In this document: positions 3,900-41,436 of the stretch, piece by piece
Layout of the letters: the number at the start of each line of letters is the position of its first letter
How positions within the stretch are numbered: the first letter of the stretch is position 1
Source of the DNA: a virus
Reading direction: 5' to 3' (one strand)
Virus record (IMG/VR): IMGVR_UViG_3300048894_000085
Span: 1 to 41,436 of that record
Length of the DNA: 41,436 bases
Program-made: the position numbers and the translations under genes
The notes under the pieces: generated by a model
Database searches by the model: none
What the model saw: only the letters and a program-made list of their open reading frames with translations
What the model was told of the DNA's origin: nothing

Positions 3900-4148
3900 T
3901 TATTTTAATAATTCATCAAGTGATTTATCAAACGCATTAAAAATAATGAGTTCTAATACTTTACTTTTTGCAATGTTAATGCGTGCTTCCTGACATAAGC
4001 GAGCGGTGAGTTCGTCTAGTGCTTCGACTGCATTTAAAGTAATACGATATGTTTTAGTGAGATATTTCGATTCGCTCATTAAACCTATTTTTTCATCTTT
4101 GGGACTACTGGTTGTCATCATGCTTGAAACTCCTTTTAATTTAGACAT
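3900..4148 (-). CDS. Ribbon-helix-helix partition adaptor (ParG/ParB-like, type Ib)
   Basis: 82-aa protein directly downstream of ParA and overlapping it. C-terminal 'YRITLNAVEALDELTARL...SKVLELII' has a beta-helix-helix pattern. Confidence 0.55.
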   Translation of the reverse strand: MSKLKGVSSMMTTSSPKDEKIGLMSESKYLTKTYRITLNAVEALDELTARLCQEARINIAKSKVLELIIFNAFDKSLDELLK

Positions 4149-4912
4149 ATAATTTCCTCTGCTAACGCGTTAAAATCTTTTGCACCGTTAGAATGCGGTG
4201 CATAAAGAAAAATGGGTAATCCTTCGATCTTCGCTTGATTGATATTTTCATCTTGACGAATAATGGTTTTCAGAATTTGGTCATAAATCATCATCTCAGA
4301 TAGTTTGGCTTCGATATATTCGTTCGTTTTAGATTTTCGTACATCCTTTTGGTTGCGTAAAATATGATAGGAATGCGCTCTGTTTTCTTTTATTTCACGC
4401 GTGACTGCAAATAAATCATACATACCTTCTAATGCATCATTTTCATAAGTAATAGGAACGATAATTTTATCTGCTGCTAAAATTGCATTCACTGTTAAAT
4501 CGCCAAGAGTAGGGCAGCAATCAATAAAACAATAATCAAACTGATCTTTTATTTTATGAAGTTGACGATATAAAAGAGTTTCACGATAAGGCCGTGAACT
4601 CATTTCACGTTGCGCCATAGCTAAATCAATACGTGCGGGCATAATTGATAAATATTGAGCTATTTCTCGATTATCACTGACTGACATAATAGCACGGGAT
4701 GGATGGGATATTCTCTGTAAAATAACGTCTGAGACTGTATAAGCATCTTTTAAGTGAGTATCTGGAATGGTGCCTTTAGTTGCATTGCCACTCGGATCAA
4801 GATCGACTAATAAAGTACGTTTTGATTTTGTCGCAAAACAATAAGCGAGATTATAAGCGCACGCTGTTTTACCTACGCCCCCTTTTTGATTAATTAAAGC
4901 TATGATTTTCAT
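4136..4912 (-). CDS. parA: ParA/Soj-family partition ATPase
   Basis: Deviant Walker A 'NQKGGVGKT', 'LLVDLDPSGNAT', 'IDCCP' and 'VPI' motifs. 258 aa. Confidence 0.9.
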   Translation of the reverse strand: MKIIALINQKGGVGKTACAYNLAYCFATKSKRTLLVDLDPSGNATKGTIPDTHLKDAYTVSDVILQRISHPSRAIMSVSDNREIAQYLSIMPARIDLAMAQREMSSRPYRETLLYRQLHKIKDQFDYCFIDCCPTLGDLTVNAILAADKIIVPITYENDALEGMYDLFAVTREIKENRAHSYHILRNQKDVRKSKTNEYIEAKLSEMMIYDQILKTIIRQDENINQAKIEGLPIFLYAPHSNGAKDFNALAEEIICLN

Positions 4913-8597: not shown

Positions 8598-9035
8598 ATG
8601 ATGCGAAAACCTTTAACGCCAATGCAATATTCATTCTGTAATGAATACATCAAGAATGGTTTTAATGCTTATCAAGCTGCGTTACATGCTGGTTATAGTG
8701 AAAGCTATGCTAATACTCAAATGGGCGCCTTAATGAATAAACCTGTCATTAAAGATCGCTTAATTAAAGCTTATAAGAAAATGGAAAACGCTCAGATTGA
8801 TAAGCTTGCAATCACATTCACTGATAAAGCTAACATACTGTTACGCATTATCTATGATGTGATACCTAAAGATGGCTCAGAGCCTAAGCGAGCATACTAT
8901 AAGGATGCGATTAAGGCTATGGCTGAGCTAAACAAGATGCAAGGTGATTACGCACCTGAGAAACGCATGAACATGACAGTGAATGCAACGCTTGATAAGC
9001 TCACTGAAGCACGCAAAGCGTATGAGGAGTTCTAA
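8598..9035 (+). CDS. terS: Terminase small subunit (Terminase_2-like)
   Basis: 'LTPMQYSFCNEYIKNGFNAYQAALHAGYSESYANTQMGALMNKPVIKDRL' matches the conserved N-terminal HTH signature of Terminase_2 small subunits. Confidence 0.8.
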   Translation: MMRKPLTPMQYSFCNEYIKNGFNAYQAALHAGYSESYANTQMGALMNKPVIKDRLIKAYKKMENAQIDKLAITFTDKANILLRIIYDVIPKDGSEPKRAYYKDAIKAMAELNKMQGDYAPEKRMNMTVNATLDKLTEARKAYEEF

Positions 9036-9086: not shown

Positions 9087-9115
9087 TTGACAATGTAATA
9101 CATTATATTTATAAT
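9087..9115 (+). promoter_or_regulatory. Perfect consensus sigma70 promoter TTGACA-17-TATAAT
   Basis: ttgaca at 9087-9092, a 17-nt spacer, and tataat at 9110-9115. Confidence 0.7.
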
Positions 9116-9977: not shown

Positions 9978-10160
9978 ATGGCATTTAATAAAGAGTATGA
10001 AGAAAAAATTCTCGTAAAAGTAGAATTAGTAGAAAAGATTCTAGAACGAGTGTTGGTGAGAATCAGTGAAAGATTACTTAAACTAGAAGAAAATGTAAAA
10101 GATTTAAACGATTTTGCTATAAATTTGAGTGTTCGTTTAGGTATAAAGAAGGAAGAGTAA
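9978..10160 (+). CDS. Coiled-coil protein, 60 aa
   Basis: ORF with heptad-like 'VELVEKILERVLVRISERLLKLEENVKDL'. Confidence 0.5.
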   Translation: MAFNKEYEEKILVKVELVEKILERVLVRISERLLKLEENVKDLNDFAINLSVRLGIKKEE

Positions 10161-10366
10161 TGATGGATTTAAACAGATTACAGACATTAAAGACAGTCTT
10201 AAGTGACCTACACACATTAAGCAGTTTTTATACTAATGCATCACCCGGATGGACACTCATTCAGAATGCATGGCGACATATTGACAGTATTTATCATTTA
10301 GAAAAAGACACTAATTTTGATAAAAAAACCCTAGGAGTTAAACAGGATGAACATGATGAAAATTAA
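10160..10366 (+). CDS. Hypothetical protein, 68 aa
   Basis: TAATG-coupled ORF. Confidence 0.5.
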   Translation: MMDLNRLQTLKTVLSDLHTLSSFYTNASPGWTLIQNAWRHIDSIYHLEKDTNFDKKTLGVKQDEHDEN

Positions 10367-10727
10367 AATCTGGAAAGAAGGCATTACCGAATCAGAACCC
10401 AATCAAATGTATCTTAAATTGGATTATGCAAATGGTGAAGATATTATGCTATCCGCCTGTGATATGGATGGCAATTATATAGAAAAAGGGGCACATATTT
10501 TATACATTGATAGTAATTATAGAGTCGTCGTTACATTAGATGGAATCAATCCAGCTATCCCTTTAAAAACGGATCTTGAAGATCAAGTCTTAATTTATGA
10601 GGAGACTGAAATTCATAATCTTGAAAAAGGTCGTTTTATGCAAATTGCATCAAAAGACATGTTAAGGCAGATAAAAGAGAAAATCGCAGAAGTAGAGCAA
10701 CCTGATCCAATACCCCAAACTCATTGA
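10347..10727 (+). CDS. Hypothetical protein, 126 aa
   Basis: ORF preceded by 'aggag'. Confidence 0.55.
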   Translation: MNMMKIKIWKEGITESEPNQMYLKLDYANGEDIMLSACDMDGNYIEKGAHILYIDSNYRVVVTLDGINPAIPLKTDLEDQVLIYEETEIHNLEKGRFMQIASKDMLRQIKEKIAEVEQPDPIPQTH

Positions 10728-15077: not shown

Positions 15078-15114
15078 TCCATTTTGTTGGAGTTAACAAT
15101 ATGGTTATGAAAAT

Positions 15115-15186
15115 TGGCATGTAGCATAAAGGTAATGCGGCATCCTGTTAAGGTGCTCAGTGCTGGTTCGAGTCCAGCCATGCCAG
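15115..15186 (+). tRNA. tRNA-Asn (anticodon GTT)
   Basis: Manual cloverleaf. Acceptor tggcatg/catgcca; D arm gcat-aaaggta-atgc; anticodon arm gcatc-ctGTTaa-ggtgc; variable region tcagt; T arm gctgg-ttcgagt-ccagc; discriminator G. U1-A72 and G73 match bacterial tRNA-Asn. Confidence 0.9.
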
Positions 15187-15388
15187 AAAGTTTATGGCCG
15201 AGGATAAGTTGAGACGTCCAGCTATTAGCTAATAACTGAAAGTAGGCCACTTGATTTAAATTGATACATTGGGTGAGTAAAAAGAAGGAGGCAATGTATT
15301 TAAATAAAGGAGGTGCGGATATTCGAGGCACTGTTGATTCTATTTTTTTACATCTCTGGGCGGCTTAAACCTATCTATTCTAAACTAT

Positions 15389-15451
15389 GAGATTGATGGT
15401 ATAGCATCTATAATCCCATAGTCGCAGGTTCAAATCCTGCATGTATCACCA
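15389..15451 (+). pseudogene. Degenerate tRNA: intact T arm, 3' acceptor strand and encoded ACCA, with no matching 5' half
   Basis: gcagg-ttcaaat-cctgc-atgtatc-ACCA at 15424-15451 is canonical. The upstream 'gatggtatagca' resembles a D loop, but no anticodon stem or local 5' acceptor strand can be paired. Confidence 0.45.
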
Positions 15452-15477
15452 AATTAAAGTTTAACAAGGAAGTTAAA

Positions 15478-19206: not shown

Positions 19207-19471
19207 AGTAGATTATTTATACATTTTTGGAAGGAAGGATCATGCAATTGCTTTATATTTCTGGGATGACGAAGAAACAGACAAAGAAAAAAGCGCGGCG
19301 CATATCGCATTGGATGCCGATATTTTTAAAAAAAATACGTTGCATCAAATTGCGGACATGCTTGAAATCTCGATTAATGCGTGTTTGGAAAAAATTAACC
19401 AAAAGGAGAAAGAAGATGGCAGACAAGAAGTTTATACAGAAAGCAATCAAGAAGCCGGGCGCGTTGCATAA
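19193..19471 (+). CDS. Acidic hypothetical protein, 92 aa
   Basis: This frame has strong purine-first codon bias (gat gac gaa gaa aca gac aaa gaa...). It overlaps the portal stop and the next gene. Confidence 0.35.
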   Translation: MLQCKVDYLYIFGRKDHAIALYFWDDEETDKEKSAAHIALDADIFKKNTLHQIADMLEISINACLEKINQKEKEDGRQEVYTESNQEAGRVA

Positions 19472-19595
19472 AGAGCTAGGTGTGCCAATGGGTAAAAAAA
19501 TCCCTGAAGCTAAACTTAATGCAGCTGCTAAGAAGGGAGGAAAAGAAGGTCAACGTGCACGTTTTGCTAAAACTCTTAAAGGTTTGAATAAATGA
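19415..19595 (+). CDS. Small basic protein, 60 aa
   Basis: 'aggagaaagaag' SD before the ATG. Translation is MADKKFIQKAIKKPGALHKELGVPMGKKIPEAKLNAAAKKGGKEGQRARFAKTLKGLNK. Confidence 0.55.
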
Positions 19596-19789
19596 ATTGT
19601 TCTGACTTTACCGGAAATACCGCGATTGACTTGGGGTTTACGACAAGCTGTCATTGCCCCTGTCATCGCGGTATGCCTTTATGGATAGAATCTATTTGTT
19701 GTGCCTGCAGAATAAATAATTTCAAGAAAAGACCCTCATTAATCGTTATATCAGATAATACAAAAGGACAGTATGTCTATAAATCATGA
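19592..19789 (+). CDS. Possible Cys/His-rich mini-protein, 65 aa (alternatively a structured leader)
   Basis: ATGA overlap with the upstream stop. 'SCHCPCHRG...ICCACR'. It contains the 10-bp inverted repeat 19617-19626 / 19665-19674. Confidence 0.3.
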   Translation: MNCSDFTGNTAIDLGFTTSCHCPCHRGMPLWIESICCACRINNFKKRPSLIVISDNTKGQYVYKS

Positions 19790-20363
19790 ATACAGAGTGG
19801 ATGTTAAGATTAGAAATAATTTATTTATAGAACGGATTGAAGGAGCAGGTTATAAAACGATTGGTGAATTTTGTAGGATAAATAAAATCAGTCAATCAAG
19901 AATTAATGAAATAATTGCTATGAAGTTATCACCCCTCATGTCTAACGGAAAATTTAGATTTCATATCATAAAAACAGCGGATGTTTTAGGTTGCTCTCCT
20001 GAAGATTTATTTACAGATACGCAAATGTCGATGGCTATTAAAAATAATAAATATTGTCTTAAAGTGAATGAAGCTGAAGTAAAATGTATGATAGATCAAA
20101 ATAATCAGCCTCTATTATTAGAAGATCATGTTTTTGAAGATCAAAAAAATAAATTATTAAAAAAAGCACTAGAGACTTTACCTATTCGAGAAAAAAAGAT
20201 ATTGTCTCTTAGATTTGGTTTAGATGATGGTAAAGAGCATACATACCAAGACATTAGTGATGAATTTGGTTGTAGTCGTGAGAATATAAGACGAATTGAG
20301 TCTCAAGCACTACGTAGGCTTAGACATCCTTCAAGATCAGATCAATTGCAGGATTTAATTTAA
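19773..20363 (+). CDS. HTH protein with a C-terminal sigma70 (RpoD) region-4 domain and no region 2
   Basis: C-terminus 'LPIREKKILSLRFGLDDGKEHTYQDISDEFGCSRENIRRIESQALRRLRHPSRSDQLQDLI' follows RpoD region 4.1/4.2, including 'LRHPSRS'. The N-terminus has an XRE-like HTH ('IGEFCRINKISQSRINEI'). Confidence 0.8.
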   Translation: MSINHEYRVDVKIRNNLFIERIEGAGYKTIGEFCRINKISQSRINEIIAMKLSPLMSNGKFRFHIIKTADVLGCSPEDLFTDTQMSMAIKNNKYCLKVNEAEVKCMIDQNNQPLLLEDHVFEDQKNKLLKKALETLPIREKKILSLRFGLDDGKEHTYQDISDEFGCSRENIRRIESQALRRLRHPSRSDQLQDLI

Positions 20364-20378: not shown

Positions 20379-20621
20379 ATGTTAGAGAAAAAAGAAATGG
20401 AAATGGCGCATCTTGAAAAAATTCAAAATGTCGTTTTACATATTAATGAAATATTAAATATCGTAGATCTCTTTGAGCCTTCTCGTCCCGGCTCTATGGT
20501 CATTACAAAGTGCGAAGAAGCAGTTCATTGGTGTCAGACAATGATGTCTAATGTTCCACTTAGAAAAGAACTTGTAAACCCAGTGGATGAAAATATAAGT
20601 GAAATAAATACGCCTGAGTAG
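20379..20621 (+). CDS. Hypothetical protein, 80 aa
   Basis: ORF with 'aaggag' SD. Confidence 0.55.
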   Translation: MLEKKEMEMAHLEKIQNVVLHINEILNIVDLFEPSRPGSMVITKCEEAVHWCQTMMSNVPLRKELVNPVDENISEINTPE

Positions 20622-20751
20622 TATTGACACATTTTGATTATTATTGTTAGTCTAAAGTTACGGATTCATCCGGTAAAATGATCGCTGACACACAGCGAAA
20701 AAAACGTGGCAACACCGTGACGCGGGCAACAGTCTAAGGAAGGATGAGCTA

Positions 20752-21438
20752 ATGGATTTAGCTGAAGGGATGCAAGTTCAGAATACAGCTCCATCGGAAA
20801 GTTCTTCAGGTTCGCAGGATGCGTCCTCTGAGAAACTATTAAAGCAAAGTGAAGTAAATGAGTTAGTCGGTCGTAGTAAGCATGAAGCTTATACGAAAGG
20901 CTTAAGAGATGCTCAAGCTGCAACACCTCCACAAGCAGCGACGCCTGTCGCGCAAAGTATGGGTGGTATGCCGCAGGTCACGGAAGATCACGTTAGGCAA
21001 ATGATTGCCGACGAGCATCAAAAGCAAACTCATATGGCAGCAGTACATAATGTATTGTCTAACTTTGCAAATCAGATGGGTACAGCAAAGAGTAAGTATT
21101 CTGATTTTGACGAGACTGTTGGTAATTTGGGTGACTTGAAGAACATACCTCATGTCGTTCAACTTGCCGCAGAGTCAGGGATGGCAGGGGATGTGATGTA
21201 CGAACTGGGACGGAATCCCGGTAAGGTTGCCACGTTAACGACGCTTGCGTACGTCAATCCCGATCTCGCCAAATATGAAATGAAGAAATTAACTGATTCC
21301 ATTAAAACGAATCAGGACTCTTCAAAAGCACCCGATATAGCTGAGCCATTAAGCCAAGTAAAACCTTCTGCGGTTGGAACGGATAATGGCTCGAACTCTG
21401 TTCGGGATTTGCGGCGTAAGTCATGGGCTAGAGGTTAG
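20752..21438 (+). CDS. Scaffolding protein (assigned by position)
   Basis: 228 aa, between portal and coat. Low-complexity N-terminus and a helical charged body. Confidence 0.55.
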   Translation: MDLAEGMQVQNTAPSESSSGSQDASSEKLLKQSEVNELVGRSKHEAYTKGLRDAQAATPPQAATPVAQSMGGMPQVTEDHVRQMIADEHQKQTHMAAVHNVLSNFANQMGTAKSKYSDFDETVGNLGDLKNIPHVVQLAAESGMAGDVMYELGRNPGKVATLTTLAYVNPDLAKYEMKKLTDSIKTNQDSSKAPDIAEPLSQVKPSAVGTDNGSNSVRDLRRKSWARG

Positions 21439-39623: not shown

Positions 39624-39657
39624 TATCGTTTCCTCATTTGTAATCATCATGTACACG

Positions 39658-39687
39658 ATATTAAACTTAATGCTTAACGCTTGTCAA
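39658..39687 (-). promoter_or_regulatory. Leftward early promoter TTGACA-18-TAATAT
   Basis: Reverse complement of 39682-39687 is ttgaca, and of 39658-39663 is taatat. Confidence 0.45.
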
Positions 39688-39691
39688 GCAT
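39670..39691. promoter_or_regulatory. Operator-like imperfect palindrome ATGCTTAAC-gctt-GTCAAGCAT overlapping the leftward -35
   Basis: 8 of 9 positions are complementary between the two arms. Confidence 0.45.
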
Positions 39692-39716
39692 CTTGCAATC
39701 ATTATGAGTAAATTTG

Positions 39717-39744
39717 TTGACATATTAATTTAAGATGGTATAAA
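39717..39744 (+). promoter_or_regulatory. Rightward early promoter TTGACA-16-(TGg)TATAAA with an extended -10
   Basis: ttgaca at 39717-39722 and tggtataaa at 39736-39744. 'aaggagg' SD before ATG 39768. Confidence 0.6.
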
Positions 39745-39767
39745 GCACATATTAAGGAGGAGTTAAA

Positions 39768-39974
39768 ATGAAAAGCTCAGAAATGATAAAAAGAATACGC
39801 TTGTCTTTCTGTCTTGATCAGAAAGAATTCGGCGAACTCATCGCAATGAGCAGACAAGCAATCTGGCAATATGAAAAAGGTATTCGTAAACCTCGGCTAC
39901 CTACTATTCGTAAATTGTTAATGTTAGCAAAAAAAAATCATATAAAGACATGCACAGAAGATTTTATGGAATAA
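39768..39974 (+). CDS. XRE-family HTH regulator (Cro-like position)
   Basis: 'LDQKEFGELIAMSRQAIWQYEKGIRKPRLPTIRKL' is a classic HTH_3 pattern. 68 aa. Confidence 0.8.
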   Translation: MKSSEMIKRIRLSFCLDQKEFGELIAMSRQAIWQYEKGIRKPRLPTIRKLLMLAKKNHIKTCTEDFME

Positions 39975-40765: not shown

Positions 40766-41436
40766 ATGTCTGACTTTAAATTATCCAATGACCCCATTGT
40801 TAAATTAGATGAGAATTCTTACTATTGTAAGATTCATCCCTATGCTTTTGGCGATTCTTTTGTAGAAGTCACTAATAAAAAGACTAATACAACTATGATT
40901 CGATGTGGTTATTGTGAAAATATAAAAGAGGAAAATAAAAAACTACGTGCAGAAGAATGGCAAAAAGAGAAAGAAAATATTACGCCGTATTATGTACGGC
41001 GTATTCTTACTACAGGTCGTAATATAAAAATGCATCAAATTCCTGATGAATTAGTTGAAGTGAAAACGGCTGTCATCCAATTAAATCGTTTGAAAGAAAA
41101 AATAGATGCACCCATAAAAGTTTGTTCAAGACATGGTAATCTATATGAAAATGCTGTGATTAAAGCAGGAAAAAATAAAAGTGGTGAGCAAAAATATAAA
41201 TGTAAAGCGTGCATGAGTTCAATTCATGCTCGTAATTATCAATTAAACAAAGTTAAAATAGCTATTAGATGTGCAAAATACAGATCTGAGAATAAAGAAA
41301 AGGTGAGAGCGCAGAAACAAAAATCTTATATGAAGTATCAAATATCCTATTTAGATAAACATATTATAGATAATGCTTATCTAAGACATAAAATAGAAGA
41401 ACGATTAGTTAAAAAGAAGGCCGCTAATAAACGGGA
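40766..41436 (+). CDS. N-terminal part of the junction-spanning double zinc-ribbon/basic protein (paralogue A; continues at 1-317)
   Basis: Hand-translated. Module 1 is 'YCKIHP...RCGYCEN...YYVRRIL...IPDELVEVKTAVIQLNRL'. Module 2 starts 'VCSRHG...KCKACMS'. The frame is still open at the window end. Confidence 0.7.
   Translation, partial: MSDFKLSNDPIVKLDENSYYCKIHPYAFGDSFVEVTNKKTNTTMIRCGYCENIKEENKKLRAEEWQKEKENITPYYVRRILTTGRNIKMHQIPDELVEVKTAVIQLNRLKEKIDAPIKVCSRHGNLYENAVIKAGKNKSGEQKYKCKACMSSIHARNYQLNKVKIAIRCAKYRSENKEKVRAQKQKSYMKYQISYLDKHIIDNAYLRHKIEERLVKKKAANKR
41310..41436. repeat. Second copy of the 127-bp terminal overlap
   Basis: Identical to 1-127. Confidence 0.95.

Follow-up and report, generated by a model that had tools for sequence, protein, structure and literature searches.

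The 41,436-nt stretch analysed here (hereafter the window) spans positions 1 to 41,436 of IMG/VR record IMGVR_UViG_3300048894_000085. It carries, in a small island between the portal and scaffold genes of a phage, an open reading frame (ORF) whose product joins an XRE/Cro-like helix-turn-helix (HTH) domain to the C-terminal piece of a group-1 sigma factor. We refer to this gene and its 196-amino-acid (aa) product as XRE-sigma4. The ORF begins with ATG, has an AAGGA ribosome-binding site 6 nt 5' of the start, and is divided as follows.

19773..20363, plus strand: the XRE-sigma4 gene, called as an ORF of 196 aa and belonging to a conserved family of ~200-aa proteins
19773..20102, plus strand: the N-terminal domain, aa 1-110, recognised from an AlphaFold2 model of the domain alone, from Foldseek matches and from a weak HTH_26 match
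20106..20360, plus strand: the sigma-derived C-terminal segment, aa 112-196, comprising a shortened region 3.2 linker and complete regions 4.1 and 4.2, including LRHPSRS

Our computations establish this domain make-up, the lack of a sigma region 2, the retention of residues that contact the -35 box, the near-obligate pairing of the two domains and the phage context. On the strength of the sequence we favour, with moderate confidence, the view that XRE-sigma4 is a trans-acting regulator that would act on host RNA polymerase at the junction of sigma region 4, the -35 box and the beta-flap.

The C-terminus is confirmed as a complete, RpoD-like (group-1) sigma region 4, for which binding is predicted. 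The full Pfam profile PF04545 (Sigma70_r4; positions 1-50 of 50) matches aa 132-185 with 62.7 bits and E=2.3e-17, the cut-off being 24.1 bits. The top NCBIfam matches are to the last 70-95 positions of RpoD/SigA models, and the RpoD_Cterm model covers aa 102-195. When a profile of 29 family members was compared with the PDB, SigA of B. subtilis and S. aureus and region 4 of E. coli RpoD were recovered at E=1e-31 to 1e-26, with matches beginning at about position 111-118, the end of region 3.2, and then comprising all of region 4. An AlphaFold model of the full protein has a mean predicted local distance difference test score (pLDDT) of 84, and Foldseek places its C-terminal domain on chimeras of SigA region 4 and the beta-flap with a root-mean-square deviation of 0.7-1.4 A and 46% identity. 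A previous interpretation from the letters alone (the sequence-only reading) had proposed that the last ~75 aa track sigma70 regions 4.1/4.2 and include the RpoD-type LRHPSRS; both proposals hold, and the profile and Foldseek searches assign the C-terminus to the sigma region-4 fold, not to an unrelated HTH family.

Over 61 residues (the equivalents of sigma70 547-607), region 4 of the window protein is 47.5% identical to that of E. coli and 55.7% identical to that of B. subtilis. With window residue n corresponding to E. coli sigma70 residue n+415, the protein retains R554, E555, R562, F563, G564, T572, R584, E585, R588, A594-R599 and HPSRS, the equivalents of R584, E585 and R588 being R169, E170 and R173. 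It departs from sigma70 in having N at 586 and R at 589, and it has G at position 581, as in Firmicutes SigA. By our own count, the distance from the PLxLE motif to the 'RE' of region 4.1 falls ~24 residues short of that in E. coli and B. subtilis, from which we conclude that the sigma finger is absent.

The N-terminal 110 aa are supported as an XRE/Cro-type HTH domain at the level of the modelled fold, and more weakly in sequence. Modelled alone, this domain has a pLDDT of 89.6 and a predicted template-modelling score (pTM) of 0.74. Its topology is a strand at 7-12, the five helices of the XRE/Cro-C1 fold, a strand at 93-98 that pairs with the first, and a helix at 100-110; relative to XRE/Cro-C1 it has an insertion of ~8 aa after helix 3 and an extra beta-hairpin. 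In the PDB, the top six Foldseek matches are to the phosphonate enzymes MPnS and HEPD, in their XRE-like N-terminal part, followed by SinR, CylR2, C.AhdI, 434 Cro, P22 c2 and cyanase (N-terminal part). Template-modelling scores normalised to the target are 0.6-0.76 for the small-domain matches, with E-values of only 0.05-1. The claim that the N-terminal ~80 aa form an XRE-type HTH finds support in the fold, while the sequence match falls below the Pfam cut-off, HTH_26 (PF13443) scoring 15.6 bits against a cut-off of 22 and covering aa 64-82 only. Weak HTH_26 matches recur in 12 of 29 members, on the helix 4-5 stretch 'ADxLxCxPEDLF', and HTH_3 (PF01381) is matched (1.3e-5) by just one of the 29, the distant member P0053, which is without the insertion after helix 3. 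A flexible linker of ~5-8 residues separates the two domains, with pLDDT below 50 at 111-113.

The protein is not a sigma factor, since without region 2 it has neither the main contact between sigma and core polymerase nor the means to melt a -10 element. The sequence-only reading had seen nothing like region 2, and our searches agree: Sigma70_r2 (PF04542) matches none of the 29 family members, no sigma domain is found among the 50 best PDB matches to the N-domain modelled alone, and hhalign of that domain against primary sigmas returns an insignificant probability of 0.5%. A cryptic region 2 or 3 in the N-terminus is rejected on the fold search and this alignment. A hidden Markov model (HMM) trained on regions 1.2-3 of the primary sigmas recovered in the same search gives a marginal match only, at aa 95-129, where 'IKVNEAEVKYML..QPLLLEED' aligns with 'v..ekv..l....PlsLe.p', the stretch in which region 3.1 ends and region 3.2 begins. 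The long alignments of the whole protein to sigma factors in Foldseek and hhalign are carried by region 4, because the N-domain alone is insignificant.

XRE-sigma4 belongs to a large family. In an initial database search ~38 full-length relatives (195-228 aa) came to light, and many of them lie on contigs of phage size (30-45 kb). Searching 1.84 billion representative proteins with a profile of the N-domain only identified 2,565 clusters (defined at 50% identity) at E<=1e-3 and 1,419 at E<=1e-10. Region 4 follows from about residue 128 in 138 of the 147 representatives retrieved; the nine others are all short (104-157 aa) and are probably fragments. PF04545 lies at the same relative position in all ten members sampled, longer ones included, and the N-domain was not seen with a different C-terminal partner among the retrieved members. 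Among these, then, the XRE N-domain and region 4 form a fixed, near-obligate unit. Members come from many different metagenomes and phage backbones, with at least 93 relatives in IMG/VR and a likely member in BFVD labelled 'Sigma-70 region 3 domain protein [uncultured marine virus]'.

Cultured phages gave a different result. No member was found by tblastn in 50,697 GenBank phage records with the window protein and a divergent member as queries; the only region-4 matches were to full-length rpoD, largely in unannotated fragment records, and these are taken to be host DNA. Nor does the window match any GenBank phage record at the DNA level. Full-text searches for a region-4-only phage protein or for the XRE-region-4 architecture returned no specific paper. 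For the family as a whole we found neither a cultured representative nor literature on the architecture. Matches in genome collections did not provide a host, as they fall on contigs of metagenome-assembled genomes (MAGs) of mixed, probably mis-binned taxa. A 230-kb contig labelled as a Candidatus Saccharibacteria MAG (CAZTNI010000003.1, locus L007) carries at 9986-10651 a member at 33% identity, with a TTGACW-type promoter 73 bp upstream; it may be a prophage copy and could yield a host assignment. BFVD also holds stand-alone region-4-only proteins of 94-136 aa, without the N-domain, from uncultured Caudovirales (A0A6J5LKM7, A0A6J5LJJ3 and A0A6J5S254), and free sigma region 4 may therefore be a wider phage theme.

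Conservation across 187 aligned members bears on function. In the N-domain, N15 is invariant in all 187 and G26, G59, P76, Q84 and N92 are each kept in more than 90%. In region 4, the residues for -35 DNA contact rank among the best conserved polar positions: R554 is retained in 76%, R562 in 85%, R586 in 86% and R588 in 79% (sigma70 numbering), four residues that reportedly make backbone or major-groove contacts in the structure of Campbell (2002). The -31 specificity residue R584 is kept in 50% and E585 in 61%. Because the contact residues are retained at 76-86% and R584 at only 50%, the family looks like a DNA reader with drifting specificity rather than an inert mimic. Selection to remain sigma-like is suggested by a mean region-4 identity of 49-51% to E. 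coli and B. subtilis compared with 40.6% between family members, members thus being closer to bacterial region 4 than to each other; many also retain LRHPSRS. In sigma70, R584, E585 and R588 have been tied to positions -31/-33 by genetics and by the structure of Taq sigma4 with -35 DNA, and free region-4 peptides bind promoter DNA (PMC2613000). The hydrophobic positions 544, 547, 607 and 610 of helices H1/H5, which in sigma70 pack on the flap-tip helix (PMC3950348), remain hydrophobic in the family.

According to the mechanism we favour, the protein would be built of two DNA-reading modules, the XRE/Cro-type HTH and the group-1 sigma piece. Region 4 would read a -35-type hexamer and the XRE domain, held on its short linker, would read or clamp the DNA right beside it; with only ~5-8 residues between them, the two HTH modules must act on adjacent DNA. 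The protein would then either exclude host sigma region 4 from selected -10/-35 promoters or replace it on the beta-flap, and by either route the promoter choice of the host polymerase would shift during infection. DNA binding, beta-flap binding, the target promoters and the direction of regulation are matters that we infer. The phage has strong sigma70-type promoters, and its scanned ORFs include no polymerase or sigma gene, so it must manage host transcription that depends on sigma region 4. In a special, though unlikely, form of this mechanism the protein would dock on the flap tip in trans as a surrogate for host region 4. Initiation would then proceed from a three-part complex, in which core polymerase and domains 2-3 of the host sigma are joined by the phage's region 4 and its XRE domain, and the phage would set upstream promoter recognition; sigma would be appropriated by substitution, not by remodelling. 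If true, lineages of uncultured phages numbering well above a thousand might rely on such a device.

The XRE-sigma4 gene lies in a four-ORF island with the portal gene on one side and the scaffold gene on the other. The remaining ORFs of the island, and the spacer that separates it from the scaffold gene, are the following.

19227..19595, plus strand: orf122, the first small island ORF after the portal gene, with no PHROG or Pfam match
19592..19789, plus strand: a Cys-rich ORF of 65 aa (CxCPCH...CCxCR), with no Pfam match
20379..20621, plus strand: orf80, Acb2/Tad1-like by orthology, 15 bp downstream of the XRE-sigma4 gene
20624..20653, plus strand: a sigma70-type promoter-like site before the scaffold gene, with TTGACA at 20624-29, an 18-nt spacer, TGn at 20645-47 and TAGTCT at 20648-53
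20654..20751, plus strand: a conserved leader running to the scaffold start codon, with small hairpins, repeated GGCAAC motifs and largely conserved columns

The XRE-sigma4 gene has a G+C content (GC) of 29.6% and a third-position GC (GC3) of 17.8%, compared with a GC3 of 30-40% in the flanking structural genes. The Cys-rich ORF overlaps its start by 17 nt and encodes a protein that is conserved in the related phage L001 and may be a small zinc-binding protein. Downstream, orf80 shares one BLAST cluster with its orthologues in L010, L011 and L001, which match PF24729 (Acb2_Tad1_hairpin) at 5.4e-8 (33.4 bits), 2.6e-5 and 1.5e-3, respectively; only that of L010 is reported above the cut-off of 27 bits, and the window copy itself has no Pfam match at E<=0.05. 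By orthology, orf80 is thus Acb2/Tad1-like, of the anti-CBASS/Thoeris sponge family, and this orthology marks the island as an accessory or counter-defence region.

The gene is placed between portal and scaffold in L001, L010 and L011 as well (58-67% protein identity), and also in L018 and L022 (42-44%), where the other island genes are different. The sequence-only reading located it between portal and scaffold inside the morphogenesis block; the position is correct, but the gene sits there with three other small ORFs in an accessory island, and the placement is not family-wide. Across 95 loci, a portal gene is nearby in 8, and replication or recombination genes lie within 6 kb in at least 53. 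In the other phage types that we read in detail, the gene is found within the early/replication operon, after the DNA polymerase gene, before helicase/DnaB or after YqaJ, and Acb2-like neighbours are absent. This early position in most other phages is compatible with a temporal regulator. The 95 loci have no conserved neighbour gene, the commonest neighbour occurring in 11. In the clade of the window our searches detected no promoter immediately before the gene; its start codon is overlapped by the upstream ORF in L010, and the gap between the two genes is ~30 bp in L011. With no promoter of its own detected and following tightly on upstream ORFs, the gene is probably co-transcribed with the terminase and portal genes in this clade.

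If XRE-sigma4 reads -35 boxes, an obvious candidate target is the site at 20624, which lies in the spacer between orf80 and the scaffold gene, its TTGACA being 261 bp past the stop codon of the XRE-sigma4 gene. It is one of four TTGACA copies in convincing promoter contexts, the others being at 9087 and at 39717(+) and 39687(-), which form a PR/PL-like divergent pair of sigma70-type promoters (region 39656-39768). At the 20624 site, four phages with proteins only 58-67% identical share TAGTATTGACACA, TTATTG.TA...CT and the TG/TAnnnT positions without change, within an aligned stretch (20600-20760) of 86% mean column identity; the more distant L018 has TTGACA in the same intergenic position. 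It is plausible that this is an internal promoter boosting scaffold and capsid expression. An A/T-rich stretch and 'GTA' precede both the 9087 and the 20624 boxes, as judged by eye only. In the leader that follows, RNAalifold predicts 21 pairs, two of them with compensatory changes, and GCTGAC..CAGC shows one compensatory change; no Rfam family matches the leader. The scaffold protein of P22 is autoregulated post-transcriptionally, and the whole spacer (20621-20752) could combine an internal late promoter with a regulatory leader.

Beyond the island, the window is a complete, circularly closed genome of ~41.3 kb, as indicated by an exact terminal direct repeat of 127 bp (1-127 = 41310-41436). 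The phage is a P22-like podovirus, with TerL, a P22-type portal, scaffold, capsid, head-closure and ejection proteins. TerL has relatives in phages of Gammaproteobacteria (~35% identity), and for the capsid protein GenBank phages yielded no relative. The genome also encodes ParA-like and Sak4-like proteins, Gam, a replication initiator and a Cro-like HTH_3 ORF. Other features of the genome include the following.

4136-4912, minus strand: ParA-like partition gene
15114-15187: tRNA-Asn, upstream of terL
15424-15455: T-arm/acceptor-like fragment GCAGGTTCAAATCCTGC...CACCA, not called by ARAGORN
39768-39974, plus strand: Cro-like HTH_3 ORF of 68 aa, beside the divergent early promoter pair

The scanned ORFs yielded no integrase, RNA polymerase or sigma factor, and with its ParA-like gene and no integrase found the phage may live as a plasmid prophage. 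The absence of a CI-type repressor, part of the sequence-only reading, stands in so far as no CI-like gene is recognised in the genome, but it needs to be qualified by the Cro-like HTH_3 ORF at 39768-39974. The further suggestion that XRE-sigma4 might be the immunity factor finds no foothold, since nothing links the gene to immunity and, with no CI evident, a Cro-like gene is nonetheless present. The genes terS (8598-9035) and terL (15478) are separated by 6.4 kb of ~20 small low-GC ORFs, a block headed by tandem promoters, among them a perfect TTGACA-17-TATAAT at 9087, with ATGTAAT repeats around; this layout and the 9087 promoter are also found in L001 and L011. In the spacer that corresponds to the tRNA-Asn region upstream of terL, relatives (L001 5443-5720; L010 5260-5655) have a tRNA-like sequence and a repeated TATGGCCGA(C/G)GATA motif. 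The tRNA-like material at 15114-15460 could be what is left of a tRNA array, or a tRNA remnant of the attP kind.

Several observations weigh against a regulator that reads -35 boxes. The sequence-only reading counted three perfect TTGACA boxes; the genome in fact holds 23, the one at 20624 being among those overlooked, and 32.5 are expected by chance, so that the hexamer is under-represented. The 13-mer TAGTATTGACACA at the 20624 box is unique in the genome. As a repeated operator it was rejected, its near-matches numbering 18 against 17.3 expected. The positions of E585 and Q589 and the recognition helix of the XRE domain (helix 3) vary among the four closest relatives and the 20624 promoter does not, which makes this promoter no obvious co-evolving target. 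In the other 88 loci the gene seldom has a consensus-type -35 promoter nearby, and an association of the two across loci was considered and set aside, since it is seen only in this clade. The apparent co-transcription with the terminase and portal genes, with no promoter of its own detected, fits poorly with a primary late switch, and the anti-defence sponge next door points, by association, in another direction. Finally, the host's own region 4, being tethered, should win the beta-flap over a free copy if no further factor comes to its aid.

Among the alternatives, the first to be weighed is that XRE-sigma4 is an ordinary operator-binding regulator of the Cro or Aca kind, for which region 4 is a mere second HTH with no bearing on polymerase or the -35 box; its target in this clade would be the cassette of Cys-rich ORF, itself and the Acb2-like gene, or another phage operon. 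HTH regulators are often encoded beside anti-defence genes, and this one belongs to a low-GC island of variable content, 15 bp upstream of the Acb2-like ORF. Both its HTH modules differ in their recognition residues between close relatives, as operator-specific repressors do, and in three distant loci a sigma70-type promoter lies 73-131 bp before the gene and would permit autoregulation. In this clade, however, no promoter is detected before the cassette, where overlap in L010 and the ~30-bp gap in L011 leave little space, and the Acb2-like neighbours are missing in other phage types. A generic HTH would also be expected to drift from RpoD, whereas the family members are closer to bacterial region 4 than to one another and many keep LRHPSRS. 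We consider such a regulator unlikely. It would nonetheless be of interest as a sigma fragment domesticated into a transcription-factor module.

Alternatively, the protein might be a mimic or decoy with no need for sequence-specific DNA binding. At the flap tip it could block -35-dependent initiation or pausing and termination that depend on NusA or hairpins; as a sponge it could occupy partners of region 4, such as Rsd/AlgQ-type anti-sigmas, host activators, the AsiA-like protein of a competitor phage or a defence sensor. The preserved hydrophobic H1/H5 positions fit this idea, as does the retention over the 187 members of the basic 593-603 patch (R596 in 79%, R599 in 80%), which in sigma70 is a surface contacted by activators. 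So do the anti-defence gene next door, the resemblance of the C-terminus to a sigma70-family protein of the anti-phage system MZA (NF041931), and the repeated targeting of the sigma4/flap node by phage proteins (PMC3950348; bioRxiv 10.64898/2025.12.17.695035). A pure decoy, though, would have no use for a near-obligate XRE domain with an invariant N15, and it leaves the ranking of the DNA-contact residues among the best conserved polar positions without a role. Rsd-type anti-sigmas, moreover, are taxonomically narrow, whereas the family is spread across many metagenomes and phage backbones. The sequence-only reading had offered three roles, namely occupation of -35 boxes, competition for the beta-flap and a decoy for factors that bind region 4; conservation favours those in which DNA would be read over a pure decoy, and we rate the decoy as decidedly doubtful.

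That XRE-sigma4 is after all a true sigma factor, whether with a region 2 concealed in its N-domain or as half of a split sigma like T4 gp55 with gp33 or B. subtilis SigO with RsoA, is very improbable: its 196-aa length is within the range of extracytoplasmic function (ECF) sigmas, full-length Foldseek alignments to SigA cover ~185 columns, a profile-profile alignment with primary sigmas extends from residue 62 to the C-terminus and members are auto-annotated 'sigma-70 family', but the N-domain alone aligns to primary sigmas with 0.5% probability and has a fold that fits XRE proteins and no sigma domain, Sigma70_r2 is found in none of 29 members, the loci share no conserved neighbour gene, and none of the 2,231 ORFs of the 95 loci, complete genome included, encodes a region 1.2-3 protein, although one as divergent as gp55 would escape this search. 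The family is too large and too well conserved for XRE-sigma4 to be a non-functional fragment of rpoD.

Returning to the favoured regulator at the junction of region 4, -35 box and beta-flap, its relation to known systems can now be set out. Region 4 of the window protein is homologous to that of the group-1 sigmas RpoD and SigA, with the same helices, the equivalents of R584, E585 and R588, and LRHPSRS in common. It differs in being phage-encoded, in lacking regions 1.1-3.0 and the sigma finger, in the changes R586 to N and Q589 to R, and in being joined to an unrelated XRE-type domain. The division of sigma among separate phage polypeptides recalls, as an idea only, T4 gp55 and gp33, which supply the functions of sigma domains 2 and 4. 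T4 gp55 is region-2-like, and gp33 binds the beta-flap and is not known to be a region-4 homologue or to bind DNA; by contrast, our protein is itself a region-4 homologue and was found with no region-2-like partner.

LtrA of S. aureus phage 37, of the RinA/ArpU/Ltr superfamily, is likewise a small phage protein, its one recognisable feature being a sigma70 region-4-like domain, there of 'limited similarity'; it controls late (terS) transcription by the host polymerase, is a proposed promoter-DNA binder, and is encoded directly upstream of terS in temperate phages of Gram-positive bacteria (PMC3753634). Judged by this description, XRE-sigma4 is set apart by its RpoD-grade region 4 and its XRE-like N-domain. 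The terS adjacency typical of LtrA and RinA is also lacking: in the window terS (8598-9035) is 10.7 kb upstream of the gene, and in none of the loci examined are the two neighbours.

The most likely functional neighbourhood of the XRE-sigma4 protein, by analogy, is that of the sigma4/beta-flap modifiers, T4 AsiA (with MotA) and gp39 of Thermus phage P23-45 (PMC3950348, PMC6755090). AsiA and gp39 silence -10/-35 promoters and spare extended -10 promoters (PMC3950348). Both bind or remodel host region 4 and, unlike the window protein, neither is a region-4 homologue or bears an XRE domain; conversely, our searches showed no similarity of the window protein, in sequence or fold, to AsiA-, gp39- or Rsd-type anti-sigmas. 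Phages without a polymerase of their own must reprogram the host enzyme, and the known routes through sigma4 and the beta-flap use proteins unrelated to sigma (AsiA, gp39, p7). In the present case region 4 itself is phage-borne, joined in nearly all retrieved members to a second DNA-binding domain, in a family of at least ~1,400 clusters. If the protein does read -35 boxes or replace host region 4, it would represent a new and apparently common form of transcriptional take-over in environmental phages, and a compact natural tool for retargeting bacterial polymerase.

The closest parallel for its arrangement of domains is provided by lambda cI at PRM, where the cI N-domain, an XRE-type HTH, and sigma region 4 occupy adjacent DNA (PDB 1RIO). 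At PRM these are two separate proteins, with region 4 in the holoenzyme, whereas in XRE-sigma4 they are joined in one chain by a very short linker. By analogy, we infer that the fusion would bind a composite site in the way that cI and region 4 do at PRM.

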